Assembly: GCA_026770705.1 (NCBI GenBank)
Contig: JANJGN010000008.1
Location: 72,292,001 to 72,356,000, forward strand
Source: Isurus oxyrinchus
Lineage: Eukaryota
Length of the DNA: 64,000 nucleotides
Direction: 5' to 3'
Positions 1 to 58,240 of the stretch are shown here, piece after piece. Made by a program: the position numbers and the translations under genes. The notes beneath the pieces were generated by a model. It saw nothing but the letters and a program-made list of their open reading frames with translations. It was not told where the DNA came from and made no database searches. The stretch's first letter is position 1; each line of letters begins with the position of its first letter.

Positions 1-1110
1 CTTCACATATAGAAGCCATTTCTGTCCACTTTCTTCCATAATATTTTCAAGGTCACCTTGAAGTTATTTCATAAATTGTGGTAAATGCATTTCTCATAAG
101 TAAATGCCCATCTTTTTGAGATGCATCTTGCTTGTATCTCAAGAAACATGATAACTTCACATGGCAATTTGAGGATCATTTGTAATTTGTGACTTCACTC
201 ATGGAAGTGCCAGACTAAATGCTGTTTGAGCAATTTTAAAGGAAGTTTACACGTTTTGAAATGGTGACAATTTAATTTTGAAAAAAAGTGAAATATCAGC
301 ACTTAAATTCTTATTTATGTTCGCACAAAAAATACATAACAAACAAGAACGATATGTTCATAGATTTTATTAGTTATATAGCACTTGTTGGGAGTATAAA
401 TGCTGTGTCTGTATTTTGATAAATATTGGCTTACATTACATAATTTGTATAATGTAACAGTTCAATTTATTAAACTTAATAAAATTAGTTTGTGCATTGA
501 ATATCGTTTCCATGACTTCCTGTTGCGATTTCTCTATTTGACCAAATAAAATGCCAAGATCGGAAAGTGAGGGAGGAACTTCAATGTCTTGGGACAACCG
601 TACAACAAGAAAGAATGGCAGTGGGTCTGCCACTGGCTGTAGCATCTGGAAAAACCACCTTCTATATTTTATAGAGCTACTGCTGAGATTGGTGTTGCCA
701 TCAGCAGCAACAATACAATGAAAAGCGCAATAGAATTGTGCAGTTCGTAATGCTCATGATTATATACGGGTCAGCTCTTTGAGTAAAAATATCAGCAGTC
801 TCTGTTGGCATTGATGCACTTTGGTAAACACAACAGTAGCAATTGTGCATGTGGAATGTGACCCATGCATAAAGTTCAGGGTCTTTGAAACAATTCTTTT
901 CTTTGCAGTGAACTTTGTACACTAAAATGATTAGCGTATTTTATTAGGTTTAAGAAAGATGGCTAAAAATCGATGATTAAAGTTCAGCTGAAACATAAAT
1001 TAAAGATTGAGATAAAAACAAAGAAAACTGCGGATGCTGGAAATCCAAAACAAAAACAGAATTACCTGGAAAAACTCAGCAGGTCTGGCAGCATCGGCGG
1101 AGAAGAAAAG

Positions 1111-1149
1111 AGTTGACGTTTCGAGTCCTCATGACCCTTCGACAGAACT
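1111..1149 (-). ncRNA. Hammerhead-like motif, inverted-arm copy
   Basis: Reverse complement of 4086-4124. Confidence 0.7.
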
Positions 1150-1539
1150 TGATTTCGAGTCCAAGAAAGAGTTGAAATATAAGCTGGTTTAAGGTGTGTG
1201 TGTGGGGGGGCGGAGAGATAGAGAGAGAGGGAGGTGCTTGTGTAGACAAACAAGCAGTGATAGAAGCCGATCATCAAAAGATGTCAGCAACAATGGTACA
1301 AAAGAACACATAGGTGTTAAAGTTAAAGTTGGTGATATTATCTAAACGAATGTGCTAATTAAGAATGGATGGTAGGGCACTCAAGGTACAGCTCTAGTGG
1401 GGGTGGGGGGAGCATAAAAGATTTTAAAATATTTAAAAATAATGGAAATAGGTGGGAAAAGAAAAATCTATAAAATTTATAGGGAAAAAAAAAGGAAAAA
1501 GGGGGGAAACAGAAAGGGGGTGGGGATGGGGGAGGGAGC

Positions 1540-1932
1540 TCACGACCTAAAGTTGTTGAATTCAATATTCAGACCGGAAGGCTGTAAGGTGCCTAGTCGG
1601 AAGATGAGGTGTTGTTCCTCCAGTTTGCGTTGGGCTTCACTGGAACAATGCAGTAAGCCAAGGACAGACATGTGGGCAAGAGAGCAGGGTGGAGTGTTAA
1701 AATGGCAAGCGACAGGGAGGTTTGGGTCATTCTTGCGGACAGACCGCAGGTGTTCTGCAAAGCGGTCGCCCAGTTTACGTTTGGTCTCTCCAATGTAGAG
1801 GAGACCACATTGGGAGCAACGAATGCAGTAGACTAAGTTGGGGGAAATGCAAGTGAAATGCTGCTTCACTTGAAAGGAGTGTTTGGGCCCTTGGACGGTG
1901 AGGAGAGAGGAAGTGAAGGGGCAGGTGTTACA
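1540..1932 (-). pseudogene. Second (inverted) copy of the PLE GIY-YIG endonuclease domain
   Basis: ORF 1540-1869 translates identically to the C-terminus of ORF 2512-3696; it lies in the inverted arm. Confidence 0.92.
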
Positions 1933-3696
1933 CTGACCTCTACCTCGCGGAGGCTGAGCGTCAACTCGCAGACACTTCCTCCTACCTCTCCCTGGACCAT
2001 GACCCCACCACTGAACATCAAGCCATTGTTTCCAGGACTGTCACTGACCTCATCTCCTCTGGGGATCTCCCTCCCACAGCTTCCAACCTGATAGTCGCCC
2101 AACCTCGGACGGCCCGCTTCTATCTCCTACCCAAAATCCACAAACAGAACTGCCCCGGTAGACCGATCGTCTCAGCTTGCTCCTGCCCCACAGAACTCAT
2201 TTCTCGTTATCTTGACTCCCTTCTCTCTCCCCTTGTCCAGTCCCTTCCCACCTACATCCGTGATTCCTCTGACACCTTACGTCACATCAACAATTTCCAG
2301 TTCCCTGGCTCCAACCGCTTCCTCTTCACCATGGACGTCCAATCCCTCTACACCTCCATCCCCCACCAGGATGGTCTGAGGGCCCTTAGCTTCTTCCTCG
2401 AACAGAGGCCCGAACAATCCCCATCCACCACTACTCTCCTCCGTCTGGCTGAACTTGTTCTCACGTTGAACAATTTCTCCTTCAACTCCTCTCACTTTCT
2501 CCAAATAAAAGGTGTGGCTATGGGTACCCGCATGGGCCCCAGCTATGCCTGTCTCTTTATGGGGTATGTGGAACACTCCTTGTTGCAGTCCTACTCCGGC
2601 CCCCTTCCACAACTTTTTCTCCAGTACATCGATGATTACTTCGGTGCCGCTTCATGCTCTCGTCGGGACTTGGAAAAATTTATTAATTTTGCTTCCAATC
2701 TCCACCCCTCCATCATTTTCACGTGGTCCATCTCTGACACTTCCCTTCCCTTCCTTGACCTCTCTGTCTCAATCTCTGGTGATAGACTGTCCACCAATAT
2801 CCATTACAAACCCACCGACTCCCACAGCTACCTCGACTACAGCTCCTCACACCCCGCTTCCTGTAAGGACTCCATCCCATTCTCCCAGTTCCTTCGCCTT
2901 CATCGCATCTGTTCCGATGATGCTACCTTCAAAAACGGTTCCTCTGACATGTCCTCCTTCTTCCTTAACCGAGGTTTTCCACCGACGGTTGTTGACAGGG
3001 CCCTCAACCGTGTCCGGCCCATCTCCCGCGCATCCGCCCTCACGCCTTCTCCTCCCTCCCAGAAACATGATAGGGTCCCCCTTGTCCTCACTTATCACCC
3101 CACCAGCCTCCGCATTCAAAGGATCATCCTCCGCCATTTCCGCCAACTCCAGCATGATGCCACCACCAAACACATCTTCCCTTCACCCCCCCTTATCGGC
3201 ATTCCGTAGGGATCGCTCCCTCCGGGACACCCTGGTCCACTCCTCCATCACCCCCTACTCCTCAACCCCCTCCTATGGCACCACCCCATGCCCACGCAAA
3301 AGATGTAACACCTGCCCCTTCACTTCCTCTCTCCTCACCGTCCAAGGGCCCAAACACTCCTTTCAAGTGAAGCAGCATTTCACTTGCATTTCCCCCAACT
3401 TAGTCTACTGCATTCGTTGCTCCCAATGTGGTCTCCTCTACATTGGAGAGACCAAACGTAAACTGGGCGACCGCTTTGCAGAACACCTGCGGTCTGTCCG
3501 CAAGAATGACCCAAACCTCCCTGTCGCTTGCCATTTTAACACTCCACCCTGCTCTCTTGCCCACATGTCTGTCCTTGGCTTACTGCATTGTTCCAGTGAA
3601 GCCCAACGCAAACTGGAGGAACAACACCTCATCTTCCGACTAGGCACCTTACAGCCTTCCGGTCTGAATATTGAATTCAACAACTTTAGGTCGTGA
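1932..3696 (+). pseudogene. PLE reverse transcriptase-GIY-YIG endonuclease polyprotein, 5'-truncated, one +1 frameshift
   Basis: Frame reads from 1932 (TDLYLAEAERQL..FYLLPKIHK..GRPIVS..MDVQSLYTSIP..GVAMGTRMGPSYA..YIDDYF). Frameshift in the C7 run 3186-3192, then CxxxxCxxC linker and VYCIRCSQCGLLYIGETKR..RFAEH..GLN endonuclease to the stop at 3696. Confidence 0.93.
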
Positions 3697-4085
3697 GCTC
3701 CCTCCCCCATCCCCACCCCCTTTCTGTTTCCCCCCTTTTTCCTTTTTTTTTTCCCTAGAAATTTTATAGATTTTTCTTTTCCCACCTATTTCCATTATTT
3801 TTAAATATTTTAAAATCTTTTATGCTCCCCCCACCCCCACTAGAGCTGTACCTTGAGTGCCCTACCATCCATTCTTAATTAGCACATTCGTTTAGATAAT
3901 ATCACCAACTTTAACTTTAACACCTATGTGTTCTTTTGTACCATTGTTGCTGACATCTTTTGATGATCGGCTTCTATCACTACTTGTTTGTCTACACAAG
4001 CACCTCTCTCTCTCTATCTCTCCGCCCCCCCACACACACACCTTAAACCAGCTTATATTTCAACTCTTTCTTGGACTCGAAATCA

Positions 4086-4124
4086 AGTTCTGTCGAAGGG
4101 TCATGAGGACTCGAAACGTCAACT
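4086..4124 (+). ncRNA. Minimal type I hammerhead ribozyme-like motif in PLE 3' region
   Basis: AGTT-CTGTCGA-A-GGGTC(ATGAG)GACTC-GAAA-CG-TC-AACT: stem I AGTT/AACT, stem II GGGTC/GACTC, GAAA, palindromic ACGT in place of stem III, GUC cleavage triplet. The core differs from CUGANGA at position 6. Confidence 0.72.
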
Positions 4125-4899
4125 CTTTTCTTCTCCGCCGATGCTGCCAGACCTGCTGAGTTTTTCCAGGTAATTCTGTTTTTGTTTTATAAATTAAAGA
4201 TTGTCTAGGGAGATTACAATACTTATAGTACATAAAATATGGTGTATTATTGCGCTTTTGAACAAATGTGAGGAAAACACTAGACTTTTTAAGTTACTCG
4301 ATAACGATAACAAAAAATAATATAGGATGACATTCATAAACTAATATGTGTGCATGCTTTCAGATGAAATTTTGGGACTCTGGTCCCAATTTCCAATGCA
4401 TGGGGATGAAGGTGAAGGAATAAAAAAAGGTAAATTTTTGGGGGGCGGGCAGAAATCAAAATTTTTGGCTGACCTTGGATCTGCCATGTTTCCTGTCCCA
4501 TTCTGCACCCGGAAAAAATGTGCCAGCACACTGTTTAATGCAGCCATCCGGGGAAAGCATTTCTGCAATTGTCAACTAGTATTATCAGCGTAACATAGGT
4601 GAACTTGACCTAACCTGCACAAAAGAACAGGAAATTTTAAACACAAGCTACTTCTAGCGTATTTGAGTCTCCGCAATCTTCAATATTGGTTTTAAAATTG
4701 TTTTGCCCAAAGTTAGCTCCATCCACAAAATCGCATCCCAGATTGAAGTAGGATGGTTGAGTATCTGCCGCCTCCGCCCATTTACGACTGTTTGAGGGTT
4801 TTTTTTAGGTGTACGAGAACTAGTAGGTGTGCTTGTGAATTTTTTCCATATTAATATTTATTAAATCTGATAGGGGAATAAGCAGAAATTTAGAAACTT

Positions 4900-24257: not shown

Positions 24258-25152
24258 ATAATTTCAGTTGACTAATGTAATCACTGAAAAGGTTGATTGT
24301 CAGAACAGTTATATTTAATTAAATAACACATAACAAAAGGACATGTGGCAAGTTTGCTTTTGAGAGGAATTCCTTGGATTAAAATGTTCTTTGTTAAAAC
24401 ATTGATCTGGATTAAGCGGTAAAAATAATGTTGGGGCTATTGTACTGTTATTACAGAGTAAACTGGACAGCAACTTATGCTGGCTGCACATGTGCAGTTA
24501 AGTGTGGAAACCAGGAAGTTGTCTGAGTTGCCCTGCTCCTCCAGAAGTTTTTGCACAAACTGTATATTAATGAGAGATTCATACATATAACTGCATGAAG
24601 TTGGGGCACTTAGTTGATGGATACTACTTACTAACCATGAAATAAAAAAATTCAGGCTTGCCCGTTCAAGTGTCAGGGAATTTATCAATGGCATGATAAA
24701 TCTTGATTACTATCAAACATCTTTCTGGCACTGAAAATTAACTTTCAAAATTGTGGAGAATTATTCCTTCAGGTTTTGATTATTTCTTTCTGTCTCTTAC
24801 CTCTCTCAATCTCACCTTTCTTTCCCTTTCTTTATTTCACTTTCTGTACACAATTTTGCATTGAATTAAATCTCTAATTTATATGCAGTCTAAACCAGGA
24901 AGTGCAAGGATTCTTCAATCTGATTGCTTAAGGAGGCATACCATTACTTGTCCAGTTCACACAGGCCAACAGTCTCCTGTGGAGTGACACATACGGTTTT
25001 AACTACCCAATGATTGCAAGTTGCAATGCAAAAGCCCACAGAACATTTGTGGGAAGTGTAAGTTTGCAGCTAATCGCAAAATACAGACCAAAACTTTGAA
25101 AAGTTATTCATTTTGGAGCTATGAGCATCACTAGCAAGGTTAATATCTATTG

Positions 25153-25391
25153 ATAAAAACAAAAAACTGTGGATGCTGGAAATCCAAAACAAAAACAGAA
25201 TTACCTGGAAAAACTCAGCAGATCTGGCAGCATCGGCGGAGAAGAAGAGTTGACATTTTGAGTCCTCATGACCCTTCAACAGACCCTTCAGTTCTGTTGA
25301 AGGGTCATGAGGACTTGAAACGTCAACTCTTTTCTTCTCCGCCAGTGCTGCCAGACCTGCTGAGTTTTTCCAGGTAATTCTGTTTTTGTTT
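25153..25391. mobile_element. 239-bp fold-back mini-PLE (two tail-out 3' ends)
   Basis: Arms ~25186-25283 and ~25293-25391 are reverse complements, same family as 1010-4188; 13-bp TSD TTAATATCTATTG at 25140-25152 and 25392-25404. Confidence 0.9.
25290..25328 (+). ncRNA. Hammerhead-like motif in mini-PLE
   Basis: AGTT CTGTTGA A GGGTC ATGAG GACTT GAAA CG TC AACT. Confidence 0.6.
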
Positions 25392-26148
25392 TTAATATCT
25401 ATTGTCCTACCCTATTTGTCCCTGAGAAAGTGGTGGTGAGCTGCCTTTTTGAACTGCTGCAGTCTATGTGGTGAAATGCTGCTATATTGCTGTTAGGTGA
25501 TGAGTTATAGGATTATGACCCAGCATCCATGAACTCAAGCCTAGATGATGTGTGCCTTGAAGGTGAACCTGGAGATAATGGTGTTTTTCTGCATTTGGTG
25601 GTCTTGTCCTTCAAATCGTATGGACACAGGTTTTGTAATACTTTAGAATATCATACTGCCTTTCTTTATTCAAGTACGTGGACAATACTAGATTCTGTGT
25701 AGTCTACATTTGGAATTCTGATTGACTATTCTCTTCATGTGCATGAGGAGAAAGAAGAAATATTTGAAATAGTTCTATTTATATCACGCCATAAATCATG
25801 GAAACAGCTTAAGCATTTTGCATGGTGATTGTTCTACTGACAAATATAACCGCTTTTCTGATGAGGAACATTCCACAAACAGTACTGACATGTATGAGTG
25901 GTTACTAATATTTTGGTGATATTGCTGAGAGGAATGTTAGCCAGGAATGTTATTTCCTGCTCATCAAGCTATTCAAGCTAGTGTTATGGAACCTGTAATG
26001 CCCAACTGAAAAGACAGATAAGATCTTTGATTAATTTTTCAGATAAAGGACAGAAATTCCATCGGTGCAGCACTCCTTCACTACCATACTGGAATGCCCA
26101 CCTGGTTTATGTGCTCAAATCTTGTTTTCTTCTTGGTGGAAAAGTTAA

Positions 26149-28007: not shown

Positions 28008-28087
28008 CATGTTTTAAAAAAAATGTAAATATTTTAAAATTGTTTTTTGTCTGGGACATGTACTGTCATTCCAATACCAAAGGACTT

Positions 28088-28314
28088 TGCGGGAAAAAAA
28101 AAGAAAAGGTTGGAAGTATTCAGCAGGTCTGGCAGCATCTGTGAAGAAAAGAAGCAAAGTTAATGTTTCAGGTTTCATCAGATGAAAGGTCATCAACCTG
28201 AAACATTACTTCTGTTTCTTTCTCTACAGATGCTGCCTGACCTGCTGAACATTTTCAGTATTATTTGTTTTTATTTCGGATTTCTAGCATCTGTATTATT
28301 TTGCTTTTGCCTTA
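28088..28314. mobile_element. Older fold-back mini-PLE of a related family
   Basis: CAGCAGGTCTGGCAGCATCTGT..AATGTTTCAGGTT mirrored by AACCTGAAACATT..ACAGATGCTGCCTGACCTGCTG; centre TTTCATCAGATGAAA; possible TSD AAAGGACTT (28079-28087, 28315-28323). Confidence 0.72.
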
Positions 28315-29229
28315 AAAGGACTTAACTAATCACATGAATTTAATGAAATAGTTAATGCTAAAGCTAACATTGCCTTTAATGGTATGAAACCTTGCATTTT
28401 GTAACACCTAAAAATTTTGGTCTCTGGAACTGTATTTAGAAAGCACTCCATTACTAATTGGCATCAGACAATTGTCATTTCATATCAGTACTAGCTAGCT
28501 GGTGTGGGATAAAGTGTCCGGAATATGCTTCAGATCAATTTAGTGTGATATCATGTCATATAACAGACAATGGGCATGTTAAATTAGATAAGAGTCCAGA
28601 CAATTATCTAGATTTTTCAATTAGTATTATTTTAATCAAATACACTTATATTTATCTATGTCCCTCATGTACAGCCAATGAATTATTTTTAAGTGTAGTC
28701 ATTGTTGTAATTAGGCAGATACAGCAGTCAATTTACACACAGCAAGGTTTCATGAAGTGATACAAGATAAAGAACTAGCTTGGTATTGATGGTGTTGGTT
28801 AAGAGGTAATTGATGGTCTAGACATTGGAAGAGCTTTCTAATTGTTTTTTGAATTATACCACTGGATCTTTTACTCTATCCTGAAAATTCAAAAAAGGCT
28901 TTAGTTTAATGCCTCATTTGAAAGTTGATACCTCTGTCAATGCAGCACCCACTCTGTCATTTTAGCTGTGACTTTATACCTGGTGTGGGGCACGAACCTA
29001 CGACCTGATTCAGAGGAATGAGCATGACTACTGTGCCAAGCTGATATCACTTACATTTTTAATGTAATGATTGCACCTGTATAGGATTACCCTTCAATAA
29101 ATGATGGCACCATTATTTAGCAGCATTCTTAATAAACAGCTATCTAATACTTTATTCGAAAATTTGATTCATCTACAAGTTTAACTAAAAGATGTAGGAA
29201 ATAGTCTGTCATCACAGTGGCAGCTTGTT

Positions 29230-33200: not shown

Positions 33201-33601
33201 CAACTCATTCAGTATAAACAGTATAAAACTATATATTCATGTGTGGGAAAAATAAGGTGAGTAGTTAGGACCTCAAATGCAGTGCCAGATGGTGTTGTAG
33301 TAATTGAAGGTATAACCTTTCTCACTGCCTATCAGGGGTCACCTGATTGTTCTTGGAGGCTCTGACCAATGATCCCTTAGTGCAGGTAATCTGGGGTGGG
33401 GCTTCTTGTTGAGGACCTGGTTCAAGCATGTAGCATCTGAAAAGCTCTCTGTAATAAAGTTATCTGTTTCTGGTTGAAACCTGTTTGGTACGTCAAGTTA
33501 TTGCATTTGGTGACGAGGGTGAAAAAGCTCCAAAGGCACACCTTGCTTTGTTACGTGAGTACGTCAAACCTTAAGAAAAAAGAAAAGACTACTCACCAGT
33601 C

Positions 33602-34572
33602 ATGCCGCTCTTCGGCAGAATCGATCCTTATGACGCAACTATGGAAAACTGGAGTCAGTATATAGAGCGCCTTGGTTTTTATTTTGTAGCAAATGAAATT
33701 GCCGTGGAGGAAAAGCAGAAAGCAATTCTTTTGAGTGTATGTGGTAGCAAGACATACAATCTCATCTGCAGTCTGACAGCCCAGAACGTGCCTAGTTATA
33801 AGTCCTTTAATGGATTATTAGACCTTGTGAAAACACATTTCCAGCTGATGCCATCCGTAATAATGCAGAGGTTTAAGTTTAATTTCAGAGTAAGGGCCCC
33901 GGGAGAGTCCATCGCAACCTATATAGTGAAGTTGATGCAGTTGACTGAGCACTGCGACTTCGGGGACGCACTCAGTGATATGCTGCGGGACCGATTAGTT
34001 TGTGGAGTTCATGACGATGCCATTCAGTGCTGTTTACTCTAAGAGGTCAACATCGATTTGAAGCGTGCCATGGAAATAGCACCAGTCATGGAAACTACTG
34101 CGGGAGACTCGCAGGCTTTGTAACACGTACAATATGGCGCTGTTCTTCATGTGGGGCAGGAACCTACACTAGGTGTGGTGTGAAAACCAGAGACACAGCA
34201 GCGAAGTGAGAGGCAATGTCTGCTGTTAGAAAAATGAAAAGACCTAGTAGAAACACTTCAACAGTGACTCTAAGGTTAATCTGTTATAGATGTGGGGGTG
34301 ACCATGTACCGGGCACCTGCAGATTCAAGGAGGCAGAATGCCATTACTGCCAGAAGAAAGGTCACATAATAAAGCAATGCAGGGCGGAATCGAAACAGCA
34401 TATAAAGAAGCAAACCAACATGATTGAATTGAATAATACAAAAGAACCTGAAGCTGCCACTACTGACATTTGTTTCTTGTACAACATTACAGTGGTAAAA
34501 ACTGAACCAATTACAGTCACAACCCAAGTGAATGGGAAGCCACTAATAATGGAGTGGTGGGAAAGCACATGA
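33602..34572 (+). pseudogene. Gypsy gag (with zinc knuckles) and start of protease
   Basis: MPLFGRIDPYD..WSQYIERL..LRDRLVCG..; CYRCGGDH..C..CHYCQKKGHIIKQC; VNGKPLIME; stops and frameshifts. Confidence 0.88.
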
Positions 34573-36203
34573 GGGTACCCAGCCACTGAATCTGGAGCGG
34601 ACAACTGCTCAATTGAAGACATACACTGGAGAATCCATACAGGTAAAGGGCATCGCCACAGTACCAGTGCCTTATAGGCAACAAATAATCCAGCTTCCAA
34701 GTGATCATAGTGACATGTGAAAGACCTAATCTTCTGGGCTGAGACTGGTTACAAAAAAATCAAGCTCAACTGGTCTAAAGTGTTAAACTTGAGAACAGGA
34801 GGAGTTCCTGTCCTGCTAAGGAAATACAACGGTACATTTCATGATGAATCAGGGAAGTTAAAAGGCTTGCAAGCAAAAATATATGTAGATTCTCAGCCAC
34901 AGGGTGGATGCCATGGGTTTGCATCTGATAGAAGAGAAAGTTAGGGAAATCAAAGATGTGCCCCCTCCATCCAGTGAAACCGAACTAAAGCCTTTGCTGG
35001 GCATGATCAACTATTATAGCTGTTTCTTGCCAAACTTGTCAACTGTGTTAGCACTATTACATTTGTTGTTTAAAAAGAATCATCATTGGTCATGGAATTC
35101 ACAACAGGAAGAAGCCTTTGTGAAAGTTACGAAGCTATTACATTCATCCTGTTTATTGGTACACTACAACCCATCGAAAGAATTGGTATTAACGTGTCAT
35201 GTGTCTCCTTATGGTGTGGGAGCTGTGTTATTACATCGGATGGAAGATGGATTAGAAAGGCCCATTCGCTATGTCTCCCAAACCCCCTCCACAGCCGAGA
35301 AGGGTTATTCCCAGCTAGAAAAAGAAGGTTTATCGGTGGTATGCGGAATGAAGAAATTCCACCAATCACATTTCACCATTGTGTCAGCTGATAAACCATT
35401 AATGGGTTTATTCATGAGTATAAAGCCATTTCACCAATTGCATCAGCAAAAATTCAATGTTGGGCTTTGATTTTACCTGTGTATGAGTATACCTTTATGC
35501 ACTGTCCTGGCTTACATTTTGCAAATGTGGATGCACTTGGTCACCTCTTGTACATGCTCCAGTGCCACAAGAAGTTGTGGTTGTATTGAATTTCATGGAT
35601 TCTTTTCCTGTGTGTGCAAAGCAAATTAGGAATTGGACAAACAGGGATCCAATTTTGTTGAAAGTCAGAGACCTTGTTTTGCAAGGGTGGTCAAATTTAC
35701 CAGTGTCTGAAGAGATGAGACCCTTCCATGCTCAAAAAATTGAGTTAAGTTGTTCAGATGGAATCTTGTTGTGGGGACCAAGAGTTGTTGTCTCTTCACA
35801 AGGAAGAGAACCACTCTTCCCAGAACTCCAGTGCGCATCCAGGCATATTGAAAATGGAAATGCTTGCATGAAGCTGTGACTGGTGGCCAGACATTGACAG
35901 TGACATTGAAAGCATGATCAAACACTCCCTTCGTTGTCAGCAACAAAAGAAGTTGCCTGTGTCAGCTCCACCGCATCCATGGGAATGGCCTGGTTGACCA
36001 TGGGTTAGATTACATATTGATTATGTAGGACAATTTTTTGGTACCATGTTTTTATTGATCGTAGATGCGCATTCTAAATGGATGCATGTGTATGAAACAA
36101 GTTCACCGACATCAAGCACAACTGTTGAAAATCTGTGTCAATGCTTTAGTATACAAGGCCTACTGGAAGTCATAGTTTTGGATAATGGTACAGTCTTTAC
36201 CAG

Positions 36204-37114
36204 TGTTATGATACAGCAGATAATGTGTGCCAGGCGGATCAAATCCAAGAAGGAAACTTGATCATGCGGTCACAATGGTTTTGCAATTTATATTTTATTT
36301 CAAGATATGTGCCCTGAATTCAGAAGTACTAAGTCCACTAAGACTTCAGAGATTTTTTTAGAAAATTAAATTAAACATTTATTAACAAAAGAAAAGATTT
36401 CAAGCACATACATAGGTCTACAAATTACTATTATAATAACTCCTAAAGCCCCTGATTAATCTGACTTCCATTATACCCCCATTAAAGTAACAGTAAAAAA
36501 ATAGATTTAAACAGATCCAGACAAGTCAAACATAATACCCTGGACAGGAGAATTCGAAGTGGCTTTTCCTAGCTTCAGTTTCTGTAGACAGCAGCTTAAT
36601 GCACAAATACTGGAGGTTTTTTTTACACTTCTGGTAGATCTTACAATGCCTTCCCTGACACACAGCTTCAATCTCCCGTACACATGTTTCTCCCTTTTGA
36701 TGTAAATCCCATTGTTCCCAAATGTCTTTGGAACTTTGCCTTTCTTATAATATAAATCATTTCATGGTGCTAATAGTATCTGTAGCCTTTGGAAAAAATA
36801 AACACACTGCTAGGCCTAGCTTCTCTGGCTGGGTGTAATATCCTACCATCTCCTTGAAATTCAAACTACCTTGATTTATCTAAAAATGCAAATTCTCCCC
36901 ATCTCACATTCCAAAACTTCAGCCATGTTTGCATATTTAACATCTCACACTTAGCTTCTTTTGATGAGTCAAAGCCTCCAGACCAGCTGTCTCCAATTCA
37001 ATTAATTTCCAACCCCTCCCCCCCACAAGCACAGAAACTATCCAAACCCCACTATTAACCTACTTCTACAATAAATCACAATAATATTATGAAAATTATT
37101 ATACTTTGGTGACA
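36204..37114 (-). mobile_element. Solo LTR nested in Gypsy integrase
   Basis: TGTTATGA..GGTGACA; perfect 5-bp TSD ACCAG (36199-36203, 37115-37119); integrase reads DNGTVFTS|TEFQRF across it. Confidence 0.9.
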
Positions 37115-37415
37115 ACCAGTACAGAGTTTCAGAGATTCATGAATTTAAATGGAATCAGACATATTAAAACTGCACCATATCATCCCACATCAAATGGTTT
37201 AGCTGAAGGAGTTGGGCATACTTTCAAATCTGGAATGAAGAGGTTATCCAAAGATACTCTAGAATCTCAACTTTCCTGCTTTCTTCTCAATTATTGTACA
37301 ATGCCTCATTCAACTACTGACTCAACTCCATCTGAATTATTGATGAAACATCACCTACATACAAAGTTAAATCAGGAATTTCCAAACTTAGAGGGGAATG
37401 TAGAGAAGGATCAGG

Positions 37416-38144
37416 TGTTGTGGGGAATTTTCAGTCAGGGAACATGGTTCCTTGACTGTGTGGTTGTTCTCCCTGACATTAGCTCGATGAAAAGGTATGT
37501 AGGGACAACTCCTTGGTGCCAGTGCTCGGACCCCTGTTGCTTGTGAGCCAACCTGGTTCAGTTGAGAACAATAGGCTGAGCTAGTTAATAATGTAAATCT
37601 GTGTAAGATAGGGACAGACGCTGATGTGGGCTGTATGTGTATTTTATGTGTTTAAAATAATTGGAATCGACTGGGCATTGTGAACACCCATAACCTTGTT
37701 ACAGGGGGGCAGTTAATGAGAGATGGATGTCTGTAAGTAGACAATAGTAGACTATCAATATTCATTGGAGTTCACCTCCAATGGCTATCAATACTTATCA
37801 GAGTTTACCACCGGCTGCATTGTAGCATGAACATGACTGTGTACAATCGTTAATATGAAATGGGAAGCAATCTCCGTGTATTGTTTACAATCTCTGCTTA
37901 TTGTTAGCCATAGCAATGAATGAAACTATCTTACTATAAAAACTGGATACATGCTTGTATTCATTAGATGTGACTCTGGTGTAGCCCACATCTCTCGTTG
38001 CAACGATAATAAAATCAACTGTGTCTTCGCCTCCAGCTGGGGTCTCGTGGCTTTCTCTTGTTTTCTCTAGGCCACACTAATTCAACAGGAAGCCCTCAGC
38101 AAATTAATAGACCCCAAGAAGTGTAATTGAGAAATCCCCCAACA
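37416..38144 (+). mobile_element. Second solo LTR nested in Gypsy integrase C-terminus
   Basis: TGTTGTGGGGA..TCCCCCAACA; 4-bp TSD CAGG (37412-37415, 38145-38148); AATAAA ~38008; host frame VEKDQ|DNQKLNHD. Confidence 0.9.
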
Positions 38145-39069: not shown

Positions 39070-39513
39070 GAGAAAAAAAAGTGACAGGTGGCATTCACAT
39101 TTTTGCTCAAACCTCGATCCAGGGCGGGATGAAATCTCCGTGGGGAAATAAAATAAAATGAGGTATCTGGGGACTGATTTTTTTTAATGAGGTATACTTT
39201 CAGGTGCTTGATTGTGCTATATTGACATATTTTGCAGCATTTTATTGTGTCCTTTAGCCTATGGAAGCCTGTAGTTCTCTGGGGCAGCTGTCTGCTTTCA
39301 GGGAGGTCTCTTGAAGCGCTCATTCACACTCTTGGTTACGTCAGTGCCTGCCCCCATTCTGGCATCACTGAGCATTTCAGTGCGTGTTTCACACTGGCTG
39401 GTCGTTAATTGGCGTGAAATCGTGGCCTGGGGCTGATCACGGCTGGTGGCTCATTTCTCGTCCGCTCTCAGGCCAGCCGATCATGCGTGCCCAACGACCA
39501 AAAAATTCAGGCC
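39070..39513. mobile_element. Partial Harbinger MITE (right part)
   Basis: AAACCTCGATCCAGGGCGGGATG motif shared with the 23567/27325 MITEs; right TIR AAAAATTCAGGCC. Confidence 0.7.
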
Positions 39514-41063
39514 TCTGTTACAGAGATATGTTGTGGTTATTTGCTACAGTGTTCTGCCTATATGTTGGCTGATGAGGTTGTGTTCAGGAGCCCACTATTC
39601 CACAACGATGTTTCAGTTGCTCTGTGAACTGGTAGGAATGCTTCTTGCTGATTCCCTGAGGTGAAAGGTCAGATGTGATGAGTTAGATTAAGGTTAGCCT
39701 GAGGGTGGCCAATGAACCAAAGTCAGGTTGCAATTTTGAGATATTAAACTTTAAAGATTTTCATTGTCAACTACTCAACATTAATTTTAAGCCACTCTCA
39801 CTGAATTATACCAGTGTAATATTTCCATTAGGGATTTATTTCTGTCAGGGGGAGTTATTAGGATTACTTTCCAATGCACGACCTAACAAGAAATTTGACA
39901 GCCATGTCAGACCACCCCTCTTTCATTTACAACGTTAGCTATCCTCTTGTCCCTTGACTGTTTTTACATCCAACACCTTCAGTGTAAACTGAAGATTAAA
40001 CAAATAATTTATGGTGCCTGTGTCAAACTGCATTTTTTAACACCTTTCCATGCTTATTTAGACAAATGACAGCTATCAGCTATGAATAACATACAATAAA
40101 ACTACCTCATCTACCACCATTAAGAAATTTTGTCTCTGCAAGTAAAGTAATTACTGACACTTACTGCCCAAGCTTTAACATGCAATTAAATACCTCACAT
40201 TTTAATTTTTCTTTAGGGATTCACTGGAATGTTAGAAATAATAACTAAATAGCTTCATGGGTAAAAACATGATCTATGATCTTTATTAGTTACTTGCTGG
40301 ATGAAATTACTGTGAATGTAATAATTTAGTGTATTAATAGTAGAGTATTTTCCCTACACTCTCAAAATTTCCTCTTGGGCCCAAACTATTCTATAATGCA
40401 CAGACCTACCATATTACAGAATATCTTAATTTACCTCTGCCTCTCTTGTAGTCCATTATAATTGTGGTATTAAGGTTGCGCGGCAGAGAGTGTAGAGCAG
40501 TAAAAAGGAATTGTAAAAAATGACCCAGTTGTTCTGGCCTGTGCAGTAGCATGGGTGCATTAGCCTATCTTGTTGGGGGCCGATCGCGGCTGGTGGCCCA
40601 TTTCCTGTCTGCTCTCGGGCCAGCCGATCGTGCATGCCTGACGACCGAAAAATTCAGGCCTCTATTACAGAGATATGTTGTGGTTATTTGCTACAGTGTT
40701 CTGCCAATATGTTGGCTGACGAAGTTGTGTTCAGGAGCCCACTATTCCACAACGATGTTTCAGTTGCTCTGTGAACTGGTAAGAATGTTTCTTATGATTC
40801 CCTGAGGTGAAAGGTCAGATGTGATGAGTTAGATTAAGGTTAGCTTGAGGGTGGCCAATGAACCAAAGTCAGGTTGCAATATTGAGATATCAAACTTTGA
40901 AGATATTCATTTTAAGTCACTCTCACTGAATTATATCAATATAATGTTTCCAGAAGATAGTTATTAGGATTACTTTCCAATGCACGACCTAACAAGAAAT
41001 TTGACAGCCATATCAGACCACCCCTCTTTCATTTACAATCTTTTATCTTGACTGTTTTTACAT
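39428..41063 (+). repeat. Local direct duplication of ~0.5 kb (39428-39969 and 40575-41063)
   Basis: Long colinear matches (e.g. TACAGAGATATGTTGTGGTTATTTGCTACAGTGTTCTGCC; GAGGTGAAAGGTCAGATGTGATGAGTTAGATTAAGGTTAGC), with small deletions in copy 2. Confidence 0.92.
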
Positions 41064-42129: not shown

Positions 42130-43285
42130 GTATTGCTGAAAAAAAAGACATGTCAAAGCTTTTTGACTTGCACTCATCAGGACACTTCGCAAGAATATCA
42201 ATACAAGGTGAAAACAACAATTTATACTGTATGGGAAGAGAGTGCTGATTGGTTGGCAAATGGACTCTGGTACAGGCATTGCTATGCAGAATGCACCAAA
42301 TTGATGATGACTAGTTAACTGCCAAGCATTGTTTGAAATTTAAACCAGGCAGATTGATCCTGATTGGTCAAGGCATTGCCTTGAGGAATGAGTCAGCAAA
42401 TGGCTGTCACTTATTTTGTTTAACTGAAATTGGTGCAATGGGTGTACATGTTCTTTGTGTCTGCAAAGAACAGAGCCCTGTGTATTAATATATGTAACTT
42501 CCAGTACACGCAAATATGCCACACTGCGAGCCCAACTGATAATCTTAAATTGGTCGTCAGCGTAATTCTTAGCAAACTGAGAATTAGTTAGCAAATGTTG
42601 TCCAATTGTGGAATCATATCTAATGTTGGACATTGTGTTTTGAATTTTGCAAGTCTGTACTTTACCTGTTGCATACTGCAGCTCAGACATGCTGTTTGAT
42701 ACAATTCGCCAATCTTTAGGTCTACATACCTAGCGTCACACTGGCACCGAAATTCATATACCACATTACTAATTTGTGTGATAAGTAGGATGCCTTTTTG
42801 GCTTGATGGCAATGCCCTATTAGTGGTGATTATCACTCATGTTGTTACTGCATAGTAGCAGTGTGAAACAGCCCGCTGCACCTGTTGCTCAAATTTTTGA
42901 GATACCTTGCCCTTTCAGGGTAACCTGAGGTAGACTGGGCACTTTTCAGGGCTGAAAGTGATGGCCTTGGACCTGTTCATGTGTTTGTGTGAAATATAGA
43001 GCAAAATGATCTGATCAGGGCAACCATTATCCAGCAAGATGCCTTTGATGCACTCTATTTCAACATCAGGCCTGTATGGTGAACAAATGACTCGGGTTCT
43101 ATTTACAAGGTTGCTGATAAGACGGATTTTATAGTGCGTGGATTCTTACAGTTCCACATGCTATAAGATAGGTCTTATCGGCAACCTTCCAAATAGGGCA
43201 TGGGCCGTTTGCTCACCATGCAATCTTGATGCTGAAATAGGGTGCATCAAAGGCATCCTGCCGGATAATGACTGCCCTGAATTAT
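42130..43285 (-). mobile_element. Old PLE of a different lineage (RT C-terminus + GIY-YIG), with fold-back at its 5' end
   Basis: SNVVYEFRCQCDARYV, DSTIGQHLL..FKII..LEVTYI..LC; YKIRLISNLVNR..ICSP..ILLDNG; inverted copy of ~43010-43139 at ~43140-43285. Confidence 0.82.
42151..42184 (-). ncRNA. Decayed minimal hammerhead motif at 3' end of old PLE
   Basis: TGTC-CTGATGA-GTGCAAGTC-AAAAAGCTTT-GACA: canonical CUGAUGA, stem I TGTC/GACA, palindromic AAGCTT; GAAA box eroded. Confidence 0.55.
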
Positions 43286-51187: not shown

Positions 51188-52535
51188 AGTCTCTTTAAAC
51201 CTCTTTTGAAGAAGTTTCTCTTGAGCAAACTAAAACAAATCGCCAAATTACCTGATTAATAAAACAAAGGAAATTTATCAAATTAAAATAACGTTCCCAG
51301 GGCTCATGATGTACTCTAGCCCCTGCGGTGCTCACCGGTCAGGGAAAACTTCTAGCATAATGGCAGATGCCGCATGCTCCCTCTCCAAGAACATTTGGGC
51401 ACAGACATGACCATGTTAGAGGGACAGGGAATTGAGTCGAATGACCCCCTCAAATGCCTGTTGCCTGGACCTGTTAATGACCACCTTGGTCAGGAGTCTG
51501 TCTCACTATATTCTTTTGAGTAAACAAGAAACAAATGAACAAATAATCAAATGATAATCCCTTAAGGGGCATTGAAACTAAAACAAAACTACAAAGGAAA
51601 CTAATCAAATTAAAATAATGTTGCCGGGGCTGATAATACACTCCGGCCCCTGTGGCGCCCATGGTTATGGAAGGCCTCAAGCGTACTAGTGGACACTGTG
51701 TGCTCTCTCTCTCTCTCTCCAAGGGCACCTGGACATGAATGTAACCATGGGAGAGGGGCAGACAGTTGGGTCAGTCCACCCTCAACTGCTTAGACCTGTT
51801 AATGACTATATTGGCTACGAGTCTATCTTTATGCCATTTTGAGTAAATAGAATCAAATGAACTAATAAATTAACTAGTTGAAAGCCCCTTAAAGGGGCAC
51901 TGTAACAAAAGAAAAATCAAATCTTTAAAGGAAACTTATCAACAAAAGTGACATTTTGAGGGCTGATGAAGCACTCCAGCCCCTGCGGGCACCCACCATT
52001 CGTGGAAGGCCTCAAGCGGTGGACCCGCAGCTCCCTCTCCAAGGACACCCGGACGCGGATATAACAATGGAAGAGGGGCAGGCAATCAGGTCAAACAATC
52101 CCTTCAACCATCTGCTACCTGGATCTGTTAATGGCCACGATTCTCTCTTTATACTCCTTTGAGTTTACCAATAAAACTACTTAACAAGCTGACAGCCCCT
52201 TAAAGAGGTACTGTAACACAAAGACAAAACTTTAAAGGAAACTTTAACAAATCAAATTAGAATAAAAACAAAAAAACTGCGGATGCTGGAAATCCAAAAC
52301 AAAAACAAAAACAGAATTACCTGGAAAAACTCAGCAGGTCTGGCAGCATCGGCGGAGAAGAAAAGAGTTGACGTTTCGAGTCCTCATGACCCTTCGACAG
52401 AACTTGAGTTCGAGTCCAAGAAAGAGTGGAAATATAAGCTGGTTTAAGGTGTGTGTGTGGGGGGTGGAGAGAGAGAGAGAGAGAGAGGAATTAGAATGTT
52501 GTTTCTGGGACGAGTCTCTCTATAAAATCCTCGAG
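51188..52535 (-). repeat. Head-to-tail array of Tx1-type LINE 3' ends (3 units of ~320 bp plus one short unit)
   Basis: The long units encode on - a decayed ORF2 C-terminus (AINRS..CLPLF..SLEREH..EAF..WAP.G.ECII) plus a 3' UTR with a GCCCCTTAAAGGGGC-type hairpin; related short units at ~49735-49970. Confidence 0.75.
52264..52488 (-). mobile_element. Short young PLE 3'-end insertion (same family as 1010-4188), with hammerhead-like motif at 52366-52404
   Basis: Near-identical to 1013-1230; 9-bp TSD AATTAGAAT (52255-52263, 52489-52497). Confidence 0.9.
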
Positions 52536-56800: not shown

Positions 56801-58240
56801 ACACACACTCTCTCTCACAGCGTTCTTTATAGAATACCACCATATTCCCAGGAATATTTAAAACAATACAATCCATCTTCACAGAGGCTAGAGGGAGAAT
56901 ACTGGAGGTGGGTGAAAAGGTGGGTGGGTGGGGGATTCATGCCCAAATAACTGAGCATGGAGGCGAAGGCAACAGAAGAGAAGTTTAACATTATTTCAAG
57001 CCTGAAATTCATTGAGGTGAGGGCATATGGGAAAAAACTGAATCCTTTGCTGAGCACAGATCCTTCAGCGTCAGAGAGGGGAAGGTCAGAGGTTATAGTG
57101 AATATATGGCAAGGGCTGGCAGTAGAAGAAGGGATGGTTCAGAGGGAAGGGAAGGGGAGCAAGGATCCAGAGTGGCGTTGGTATCACTAAGGTGTTGGAG
57201 CTTGCATTCCTTCGCACCTGAAAGGAAGAGAAAGTTTTTTGTTAAGGCATTGGATGAAATGAAGAATGCGATGGAACTGGGAACAAGGACAGCTTTGAGA
57301 TAGGGTGAATTGGTGCTGCTGGAGAGAGAAGTTGAGTGTGCACATGTGGTGGTGCATGGAACTGAATGTGGATCTCAGGATGTGACGAGAACAGCAGTCT
57401 GAGGAACGTTGTATGCCTGGAAATACCTGTAATTCTGGGTGGATTCGTAACATGAAGGATGGAACTTCAGTTGAAATTCATGTGGGTTAAGTCAGAGACA
57501 ACCACTGAGAAAGGAAATGTGGCTGTGAAAAGGGGTTTGGTAAACACCTTATCAAATGTGAGGAGGGAAATGGAAATCAATGAAGGTGAAGAGGTGAAAT
57601 AGACAAATGAAAATCCTGTTGAGGAGAAGAGCAGAACTTCTTCATACTAGAAGGGAATTGACAGCGAATTAAACACTAAAATAAAAACAAAATGCTGTGG
57701 TTGTTGGAAATCTGAACTAAAAACAGAAATGCTAGAAAAATTCAACAGGTCTGGCAGCATCTGTGGAGAGAGAAACAGAGTTAATGCTTCGAATCCCATA
57801 TGACTCCTGTTTGGAACTGGAGAGAAGTAGAAATGTGATGGGTTTTATGCTATTGAAGAAGTGGGGAGGTGGAGCAAAGTAGAAGATTAGGGATGGGTTG
57901 AAGTTCAGGAGAGATGAAATGATAAAGATGTCATGGAGCACAAGACAAAGAGAGTGGTAATGATAGTATTAAAGACTAAAGCAGGAGTTAATAGTGGAAT
58001 AAATGTCAGCACTGTATGAAAGCAAAATAGCAGAGTGTGTAACTGGTTGAAAAACCTTCAGTGCTGTCTGAAAGCAAGACATGGGAACACGATACAGACT
58101 GATGCATGTGGGGTGTGGGTTGAAACAAAATGGAGGACAGAGTTCATGATCTGAAGTTGAACTCAATGTTGTCTGGAAGACTGTGAAGTGCCTAATTGGA
58201 GGATGAGGTGCTGTTCCTCTAGCTTGCGCAGTTCCTTCAA
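53880..58240 (-). mobile_element. Older near-full-length PLE with upstream direct pseudo-LTR
   Basis: On -: 58240-57680 repeats the endonuclease end and 3' region; then N-terminus (CCSRHILRSTFSSM..LNKKL), LSKGFSF, RT remnants, GIY-YIG (TGETKHRLGD) to ~53930. Confidence 0.88.
55823..56883 (-). mobile_element. Solo LTR nested in the older PLE
   Basis: TGCTACGA..TCTTCACA; 4-bp TSD GAGG (55819-55822, 56884-56887); PLE frame LQYSPSS|LLPALDLF resumes across it. Confidence 0.85.

Follow-up and report, generated by a model that had tools for sequence, protein, structure and literature searches.

The Penelope-like element (PLE) insertion at positions 995–4203 of the analysed 64,000-nt stretch of Isurus oxyrinchus DNA (the window) carries two outward-facing 3' ends of the same element within a single 15-bp target-site duplication (TSD). 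The arrangement is best explained, and most simply, by two cDNAs that were primed from both nicks of the target site and then joined, a reading to which we assign a probability of roughly 0.68. Taken alone, the locus is a dead transposon copy of an ordinary sort; it is of value as a clean, young example that bears on the origin of inverted PLE structures.

The features of the insertion and of related copies in the window are listed in Table 1. The 15-mer forming the TSD occurs only twice in the window, and the chance of a matching 15-bp TSD, with 50 x 50 offsets allowed for, is ~8e-6. The arms differ by two substitutions (1479/3758 and 1255/3982) and two small indels, located in a T run and in a CT repeat. 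Both the outward 3' ends within one 15-bp TSD and the near identity of the ~885-bp arms had been noticed in an earlier inspection of the letters alone (the sequence-only reading), and both observations are borne out. The palindrome described there is correct but incomplete, as the 37 extra element bases that form the tail of the inverted arm had been missed. The insertion is therefore asymmetric between its arms, the tail being one-sided. The arm had also been said to join the reverse transcriptase (RT) sequence abruptly at 1932. The position holds, but the join is not strictly abrupt: according to family reads, the RT body already begins at 1931, and arm and body overlap by 2 nt. Such an overlap falls within the range common for chance joining and is not significant; its interpretation as a sign of directed annealing was rejected. 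The junction joins element points 1371 nt apart, and a hairpin is absent there.

Table 1 Features of the 995–4203 insertion and of family copies in the window.
Feature	Position	Strand	Remarks
Left TSD, 15 bp, AT-rich	995..1009	+	Exact match to 4189-4203 by direct sequence comparison
PLE tail, 37 nt, left arm only	1010..1046	-	Missing from right arm; found in family copies at 25153 and 52262
Inverted 5'-truncated 3' part: EN coding region, 3' UTR, pLTR	1047..1932	-	882 of 884 aligned bases identical to 3304-4188 (+)
Hammerhead-like motif, left arm	1111..1149	-	Mirror of 4086-4124, by eye
Inversion junction, 2-nt overlap of arm and RT body	1931..1932	.	Family sequence from loose ends on either side (preceding 1931, following 1932)
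5'-truncated PLE RT, YIDD present, beginning just past the DKG motif	1931..3192	+	PF00078, E 4e-8
Linker with CX4CxxC Zn-finger-like motif, then GIY-YIG endonuclease (EN; two internal cysteines), then stop	3193..3696	+	PF01541
3' UTR and pLTR up to the tailless terminus	3697..4188	+	Loose ends throughout the family at 1047, which mirrors 4188
Minimal hammerhead-like motif, right arm	4086..4124	+	By eye, against the description in part of PMC4209133
Right TSD	4189..4203	+	Exact match to 995-1009
Tail-out palindrome	25153-25392		13-bp TSD, one-arm tail, 6-nt filler repeating nearby sequence
Older tail-out palindrome	28093-28310		Probable 9-bp TSD, clear tail on one arm, hairpin-like centre
Simple insertion	52262-52488		9-bp TSD
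Simple insertion	Copy ending near 57680

The RT region shares at most 59% identity with the best longer relatives (439 matches), and its frame is terminated at 3186–3192, where a run of C contains a frameshift. The RT and EN parts are both open, whereas in relatives they are joined in one protein; judged from its sequence, the copy is interrupted by this frameshift, lacks a 5' end and is not autonomous. Family letters upstream of 1931, recovered from loose read ends, encode DKGGAVVVWR, and DKGG is found at the equivalent place in relatives. The EN matches the GIY-YIG profile PF01541 with an E value of 4e-4 and 21 bits, slightly below the Pfam cut-off of 22.6, and the call is supported by an alignment in which the EN is 42–51% identical to those of 11 relatives. 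It features a CCHH motif, as evidenced by VYCIRCSQCGLLYIGE and the conserved H residues that follow. In the inverted arm, the EN-encoding region is covered by a minus-strand ORF across 1540–2040.

The Zn-finger-like motif of the linker reads CPRKRCNTC. A CX2-5CxxC motif between RT and EN defines the Neptune and Nematis clades and is missing in Penelope/Poseidon, according to the part of PMC8557442 that treats these clades. Because the CX4CxxC motif is present, the sequence points to a member of the Neptune/Nematis group of endonuclease-containing PLEs, the two clades being kept together here, and Penelope/Poseidon was rejected. The attribution to a PLE made in the sequence-only reading is thus retained, whereas the assignment to Penelope is not. 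The C-terminal GIY-YIG EN, the two core cysteines and the DKG in the family are further likenesses to Neptune/Nematis elements; in contrast to these, the target is not a microsatellite (PMC8557442, same part). The terminal repeat of pLTR type expected of an EN+ PLE is represented by the inverted arm and the 37-nt tail. Literature searches on shark Neptune elements and on PLE structure each returned no relevant paper.

Read runs were found by the right flank and mapped to 400–3295, a reference that includes one arm only. In run X22, loose ends of family reads accumulate at two points, with 4301 reads at 1047 and 14169 at 1024, inside the tail; the tailless and the tailed ends are therefore both family-wide 3' termini. 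X22 depth suggests that organism B has some 5e4 3' ends and 1e4 RT regions of the family, a rough estimate in that the flank depth of 0.55 comes from six bins. Organism B differs from the window flank at 9 positions in 610 (~1.5%). One of its contigs, of unique depth and 2481 nt long, tracks the flank, leaves it exactly after 1009 and runs on for 1226 letters off the element. Organism B, a related species, thus appears to lack the insertion, as this contig fits an empty site, for which it is indirect evidence. In organism A, a contig spans 400–1032 with no differences and ends 23 nt inside the tail, short of the 31-letter bridging standard, in a run that may be the assembly's own sample. As the arms diverge at 2 of 884 positions and the two species at 9 of 610, the sequences suggest that the insertion occurred well after the split of organisms A and B, with a wide error.

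The layout has precedents. A typical PLE copy is described as carrying an inverted pLTR, a 9–10-bp TSD and a 31-bp tail on one end (PMC3846280), both PLE features are given in a curation guide (PMC8969392), and the tail occurs at either end of PLE copies (PMC8557442). The combination of an inverted 5'-truncated copy, one tail and one TSD is already described for PLEs (PMC3846280, PMC8557442), and extension of both strands has been reported in vitro (PMC11167929). The novelty implied by the sequence-only reading must therefore be given up. For instance, Pen2a_Av and Pen2 of Adineta vaga (PMC3846280; scheme in PMC8557442) likewise feature outward 3' ends within one TSD, a 30–40-nt tail on one end, 5' truncation and a hammerhead-like motif near the 3' end. 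In contrast, the present arm is 886 bp plus tail and extends into the EN, whereas that of the rotifer elements is ~180–210 bp; the upstream direct pLTR is missing, owing to truncation of the body in the RT, and the junction has no hairpin. The origin of tandem and inverted PLE structures is described as still undefined (PMC8557442).

In the reading that we favour, a Neptune/Nematis-type PLE would have given rise to the whole structure in one retrotransposition event. Its GIY-YIG endonuclease would nick both strands of the AT-rich site 15 nt apart, a distance deduced from the TSD. The 3' end of the bottom strand would prime cDNA synthesis at the tailless start site, giving a product of 2258 nt (4188 to 1931), and the 3' end of the top strand would prime at the tail end, 37 nt further downstream on the RNA, giving a product of 923 nt (1010 to 1932). 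The template of both cDNAs would be RNA of a single source element, whether the same molecule read twice or two separate transcripts. Joining of the cDNA ends at the 2-nt overlap and filling of the gaps would then leave two outward-facing 3' ends within one TSD. This reconstruction, including the order of priming and the joining step, is consistent with the single exact TSD that surrounds both arms and with the putative empty site of organism B. It also fits the ends of the arms, which coincide with the two termini of the family (1047 and, in the tail, 1024). The insignificance of the 2-nt overlap counts against it. Priming from both nicks followed by cDNA joining, as put forward in the sequence-only reading, thus remains the best fit and gains support from the one-sided tail. 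What the data show at this locus is the anatomy, the identity of the element, its two family-wide 3' termini, the common template and the recurrence; the priming order, the joining step and the use of one or two RNAs are inferred.

Biochemical data bear on the same reading. The purified PLE protein of the anole cleaves and extends both strands, target homology being unneeded, and initiates at two neighbouring positions on the RNA, which mark the limits of the tail; a dimer is predicted (PMC11167929). The corresponding element, PAc (Poseidon, Anolis carolinensis), resembles the present one in its two 3' termini one tail apart, in its AT-rich target, in priming at the tailless site without primer–RNA homology, and in the extension of both strands. 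PAc belongs to another clade, and its start region is AC-rich, while that of the present element is U-rich (PMC11167929). The finding that both strands are extended in vitro favours priming from two nicks, but no difference in start site between the strands was seen in vitro, and the work concerns a Poseidon element (PMC11167929). The main text of PMC11167929 is silent on inverted insertions and on their link to two-strand extension.

The tail sits on the short arm, beyond the reach of one cDNA copying itself. Fold-back of a single cDNA is ruled out by this arrangement, because a tail to be copied is missing from the long cDNA and the short cDNA stops before 1931, and a later duplication at the DNA level fails for the same reason. 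Self-priming or fold-back on a nascent cDNA or an antisense transcript is how inverted PLE junctions have been interpreted in the literature, PMC3846280 favouring self-priming on an antisense template, which weighs against two-nick priming. The hairpin-like centre of the older palindrome and the 6-nt filler of the 25153–25392 copy are in line with such an origin. At the present locus, however, the junction has no hairpin and joins points that are distant in the element, and the scheme would require either antisense RNA as a template or additional template jumps; we consider this origin of the inverted arm improbable.

At all 13 family-variable sites that can be aligned, the two arms carry identical letters (14 sites fall in the arm, among the 40 listed of 409). 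The shared letter is the minority letter at 12 of the 13 sites in X22 and at 6 of 13 in X1, and at position 1268 about 99% of the family sequence in X1 and X22 differs from both arms. Because of these shared letters, including that at 1268, the sequences indicate that both arms derive from one source element, unless gene conversion later homogenised the arms. The agreement of the arms favours two-nick priming, although gene conversion between arms could also have produced it.

The shared letters also bear on two further explanations. In the first, L1-style twin priming would have occurred on one tandem RNA, the two nicks priming at its downstream and upstream pLTR, so that each arm would be a copy of a different repeat of the source locus. 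PLE loci are arranged fully or partly in tandem and are transcribed in that form (PMC11167929), no RNA stretch need be read twice, and the long-to-short ratio of 2.4 is close to the 2.6 reported for L1 (bioRxiv 10.1101/2024.08.27.596794). However, the arm holds the whole 3' UTR and the EN region, which calls for an upstream copy of at least 923 nt in the RNA, and the rare letters in common demand near-identical tandem copies. We consider this explanation improbable as well, slightly more so than self-priming. In the second, two insertions would have occurred successively in opposite orientation at one site, perhaps with later homogenisation. The endonucleases of PLEs can target their own pLTR region (PMC11167929), and the family is present in very high numbers, organism B having roughly 1e4 to 5e4 copies. 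Against this stand the single TSD, with none at the junction, the rare letter at 1268 common to both arms, and the 99.8% likeness of the arms, compared with a level of 99% that only 23,074 of the 210,757 reads of the family in organism B attain. We regard two successive insertions as very improbable, all the more so as the layout recurs at other sites.

A motif from the 3' end of the element has eight matches in the window, compared with none in 100 shuffles, and these correspond to five insertions. Three of the five are tail-out palindromes, each with a different junction, and this recurrence supports two-nick priming. Among relatives, an inverted repeat of at least 40 nt was found in 16 of 80 metagenome loci, a count that is no frequency, as short-read contigs collapse palindromes; five of the loci were inspected for TSD and tail. 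Locus L023, whose protein is 52% identical, features a 13-bp TSD, an inverted arm that is short and bears the tail, a long body that is tailless and 5'-truncated, and a hammerhead in both arms. As far as its sequence tells, L023 shares the build of the 995–4203 insertion, and it lends further support to two-nick priming. L013 has an inverted arm with a hammerhead, and no TSD was found in it; L007, L009 and L026 show other arrangements. The 3'-end motif had no matches in metagenome and viral contigs, and four single matches in bacterial contigs were taken as chance. The RT alignment search yielded no relatives in viral contigs, and the EN alignment was too variable for use as a search query.

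The recurrence is also relevant to the notion that the palindrome is an assembly artefact, or that an already palindromic master was copied over its whole length. Such structures trouble assemblers (PMC8557442), and among the 24 listed of more than 635,000 pieces, neither a read nor a contig spans the inner junction (1931–1933), which also counts against two-nick priming. The arms nevertheless differ at four places and in the tail, so that neither was built from the reads of the other; both ends lie at family termini within one TSD; and the three palindromes of the window have three different junctions. An artefact or a palindromic master therefore seems no less remote than two successive insertions.

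We tentatively raise a more general possibility, which we consider doubtful at present, namely that PLE insertion is normally two-handed and asymmetric, with a dimer acting on one RNA and one start site for each strand. The leading RT would start at the tailless site and make the long cDNA; the trailing RT would start at the tail end, displace the first cDNA and make the short inverted arm. If true, such a model would account at one stroke for inverted pLTRs and for the one-sidedness of the tail. It predicts exactly one tail per palindrome, on the shorter arm. The tail placement that excludes simple fold-back thus also provides a countable rule. The rule holds in two clear cases, the 995–4203 insertion and L023, and the 25153–25392 copy, whose tail arm stops 3 nt earlier, is compatible with it. 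On the other side, PLE tails are described at either end (PMC8557442), and the in vitro start sites show no strand difference (PMC11167929). A family with about 1e4 copies would allow the rule to be tested in one genome. No paper stating an asymmetric dimer model was found in our search, outside which the older PLE reviews lie. Similarly, the search found no paper that traces the inverted arms of PLEs to two-strand priming; Arkhipova 2006, Evgen'ev and Arkhipova 2005, and Pyatkov 2004 lay outside its scope and may state so.

The comparison with L1 is instructive. A classical L1 twin-priming product was rejected, as what is inverted here is a second 3' end and not an internal segment; classical twin priming in L1 is associated with short duplications, with a median of 22 bp (bioRxiv 10.1101/2024.08.27.596794; PMC10191854). 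L1 'dual priming', in which both nicks prime at RNA 3' ends, has been postulated, on the basis of 39 loci indistinguishable from twin priming (PMC2837659). The contrast with L1 drawn in the sequence-only reading is therefore valid for classical twin priming and not for dual priming. In the L1 schemes, as in that proposed here, both nicked strands prime and the cDNAs are joined inside one TSD (PMC2837659). Unlike PLEs, L1 primes on poly(A), and while the inverted layout is common in PLEs, dual priming is only postulated for L1.

Both arms contain a hammerhead-like motif. Rfam detected no hammerhead in the right-arm motif or its mirror, with no gathering hits within the window, and a mir-9186 match over the junction (E 0.34) was taken as chance. 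The right-arm motif has a 4-bp stem I, a 5-bp stem II preceded by an extra base, a palindromic stem III, and a core in which U takes the place of the canonical A6. Its layout fits, by eye, a putative minimal hammerhead save for the U at position 6. Stem II is found in the minimum-energy fold of 150 nt and is missing from the centroid. A stem-loop is predicted to close over the tailless start site; its z score is -1.3 at this locus, which is not significant, and -3.5 in one of the three copies folded.

Two further palindromes of this kind lie in the window, a short one from the same family as the main locus (the truncated Neptune/Nematis-type Penelope-like element, PLE) and an older one from a related family (table below). 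In the short palindrome, the junction carries a 6-nt filler whose sequence is also present 12 nt upstream, a pattern like that left by polymerase-mediated end joining. The centre of the older palindrome is hairpin-like and is located in the hammerhead core.

Both of these palindromes stop where the hammerhead begins on its 5' side (25283-25290 and 28180). At the equivalent place in the main locus, 1149, many family reads leave the reference, including 3795 reads in X22, a run from a related species (agreement 0.51). These coinciding ends could mark the 5' end of the RNA, or they could reflect a site at which reverse transcriptase stalls, or a boundary between subfamilies.

At the tail-side boundary, ATT is found at the boundary itself or a few bases away in three of three copies of the main-locus family (1006-1009, 25149-25152 and 52256-52259). 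L023, a metagenome locus of the same palindromic build, likewise has ATT by this boundary, near 366, and the consensus of the loose ends in read runs X1 and X2 also contains it. The boundary ATT of the shark family and L023 is akin to the ATT cleavage preference of PAc, the Poseidon PLE of Anolis carolinensis, although it could be encoded by the element.

Core position 6 of the hammerhead-like motif, canonically A, is U in all family ends in the window (5/5). This PLE family, recently active, may carry a weakened ribozyme. For PAc, ribozyme cleavage is reported to be dispensable in vitro (PMC11167929).

Features of PLE copies and relatives
Feature	Position	Description
Family ends with U at core position 6	4090-4096; 1139-1145; those of 52262-52488 and 25153-25392	
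Short palindrome, main-locus family	25140-25404	13-bp TSD; tail confined to left arm
Older palindrome, related family	28079-28323	probable 9-bp TSD; tail on right arm
Older PLE relative, ~74-79% identity	53934-55638	RT-EN fragment
Older PLE relative, ~74-79% identity	57667-58225 (minus)	5'-truncated 3' end with tail
Metagenome relative L013	1005-1133 / 3536-3663	hammerhead on inverted arm
Metagenome relative L072	50-207	palindrome 5' of RT
Metagenome relative L028	12-268	palindrome 5' of RT

Other repeats also occur in the window. An imperfect palindrome of 266 bp (43015-43280, 77%), with no relation to the PLE, is possibly a MITE. Read by eye, ORF fragments resembling gag, RT and integrase (33575-37543) look like a decayed LTR retrotransposon. 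There is also a 540-bp direct repeat (39429-39969 / 40576-41063, 84%), and 51264-52265 holds a decayed tandem array of ~330-bp units.
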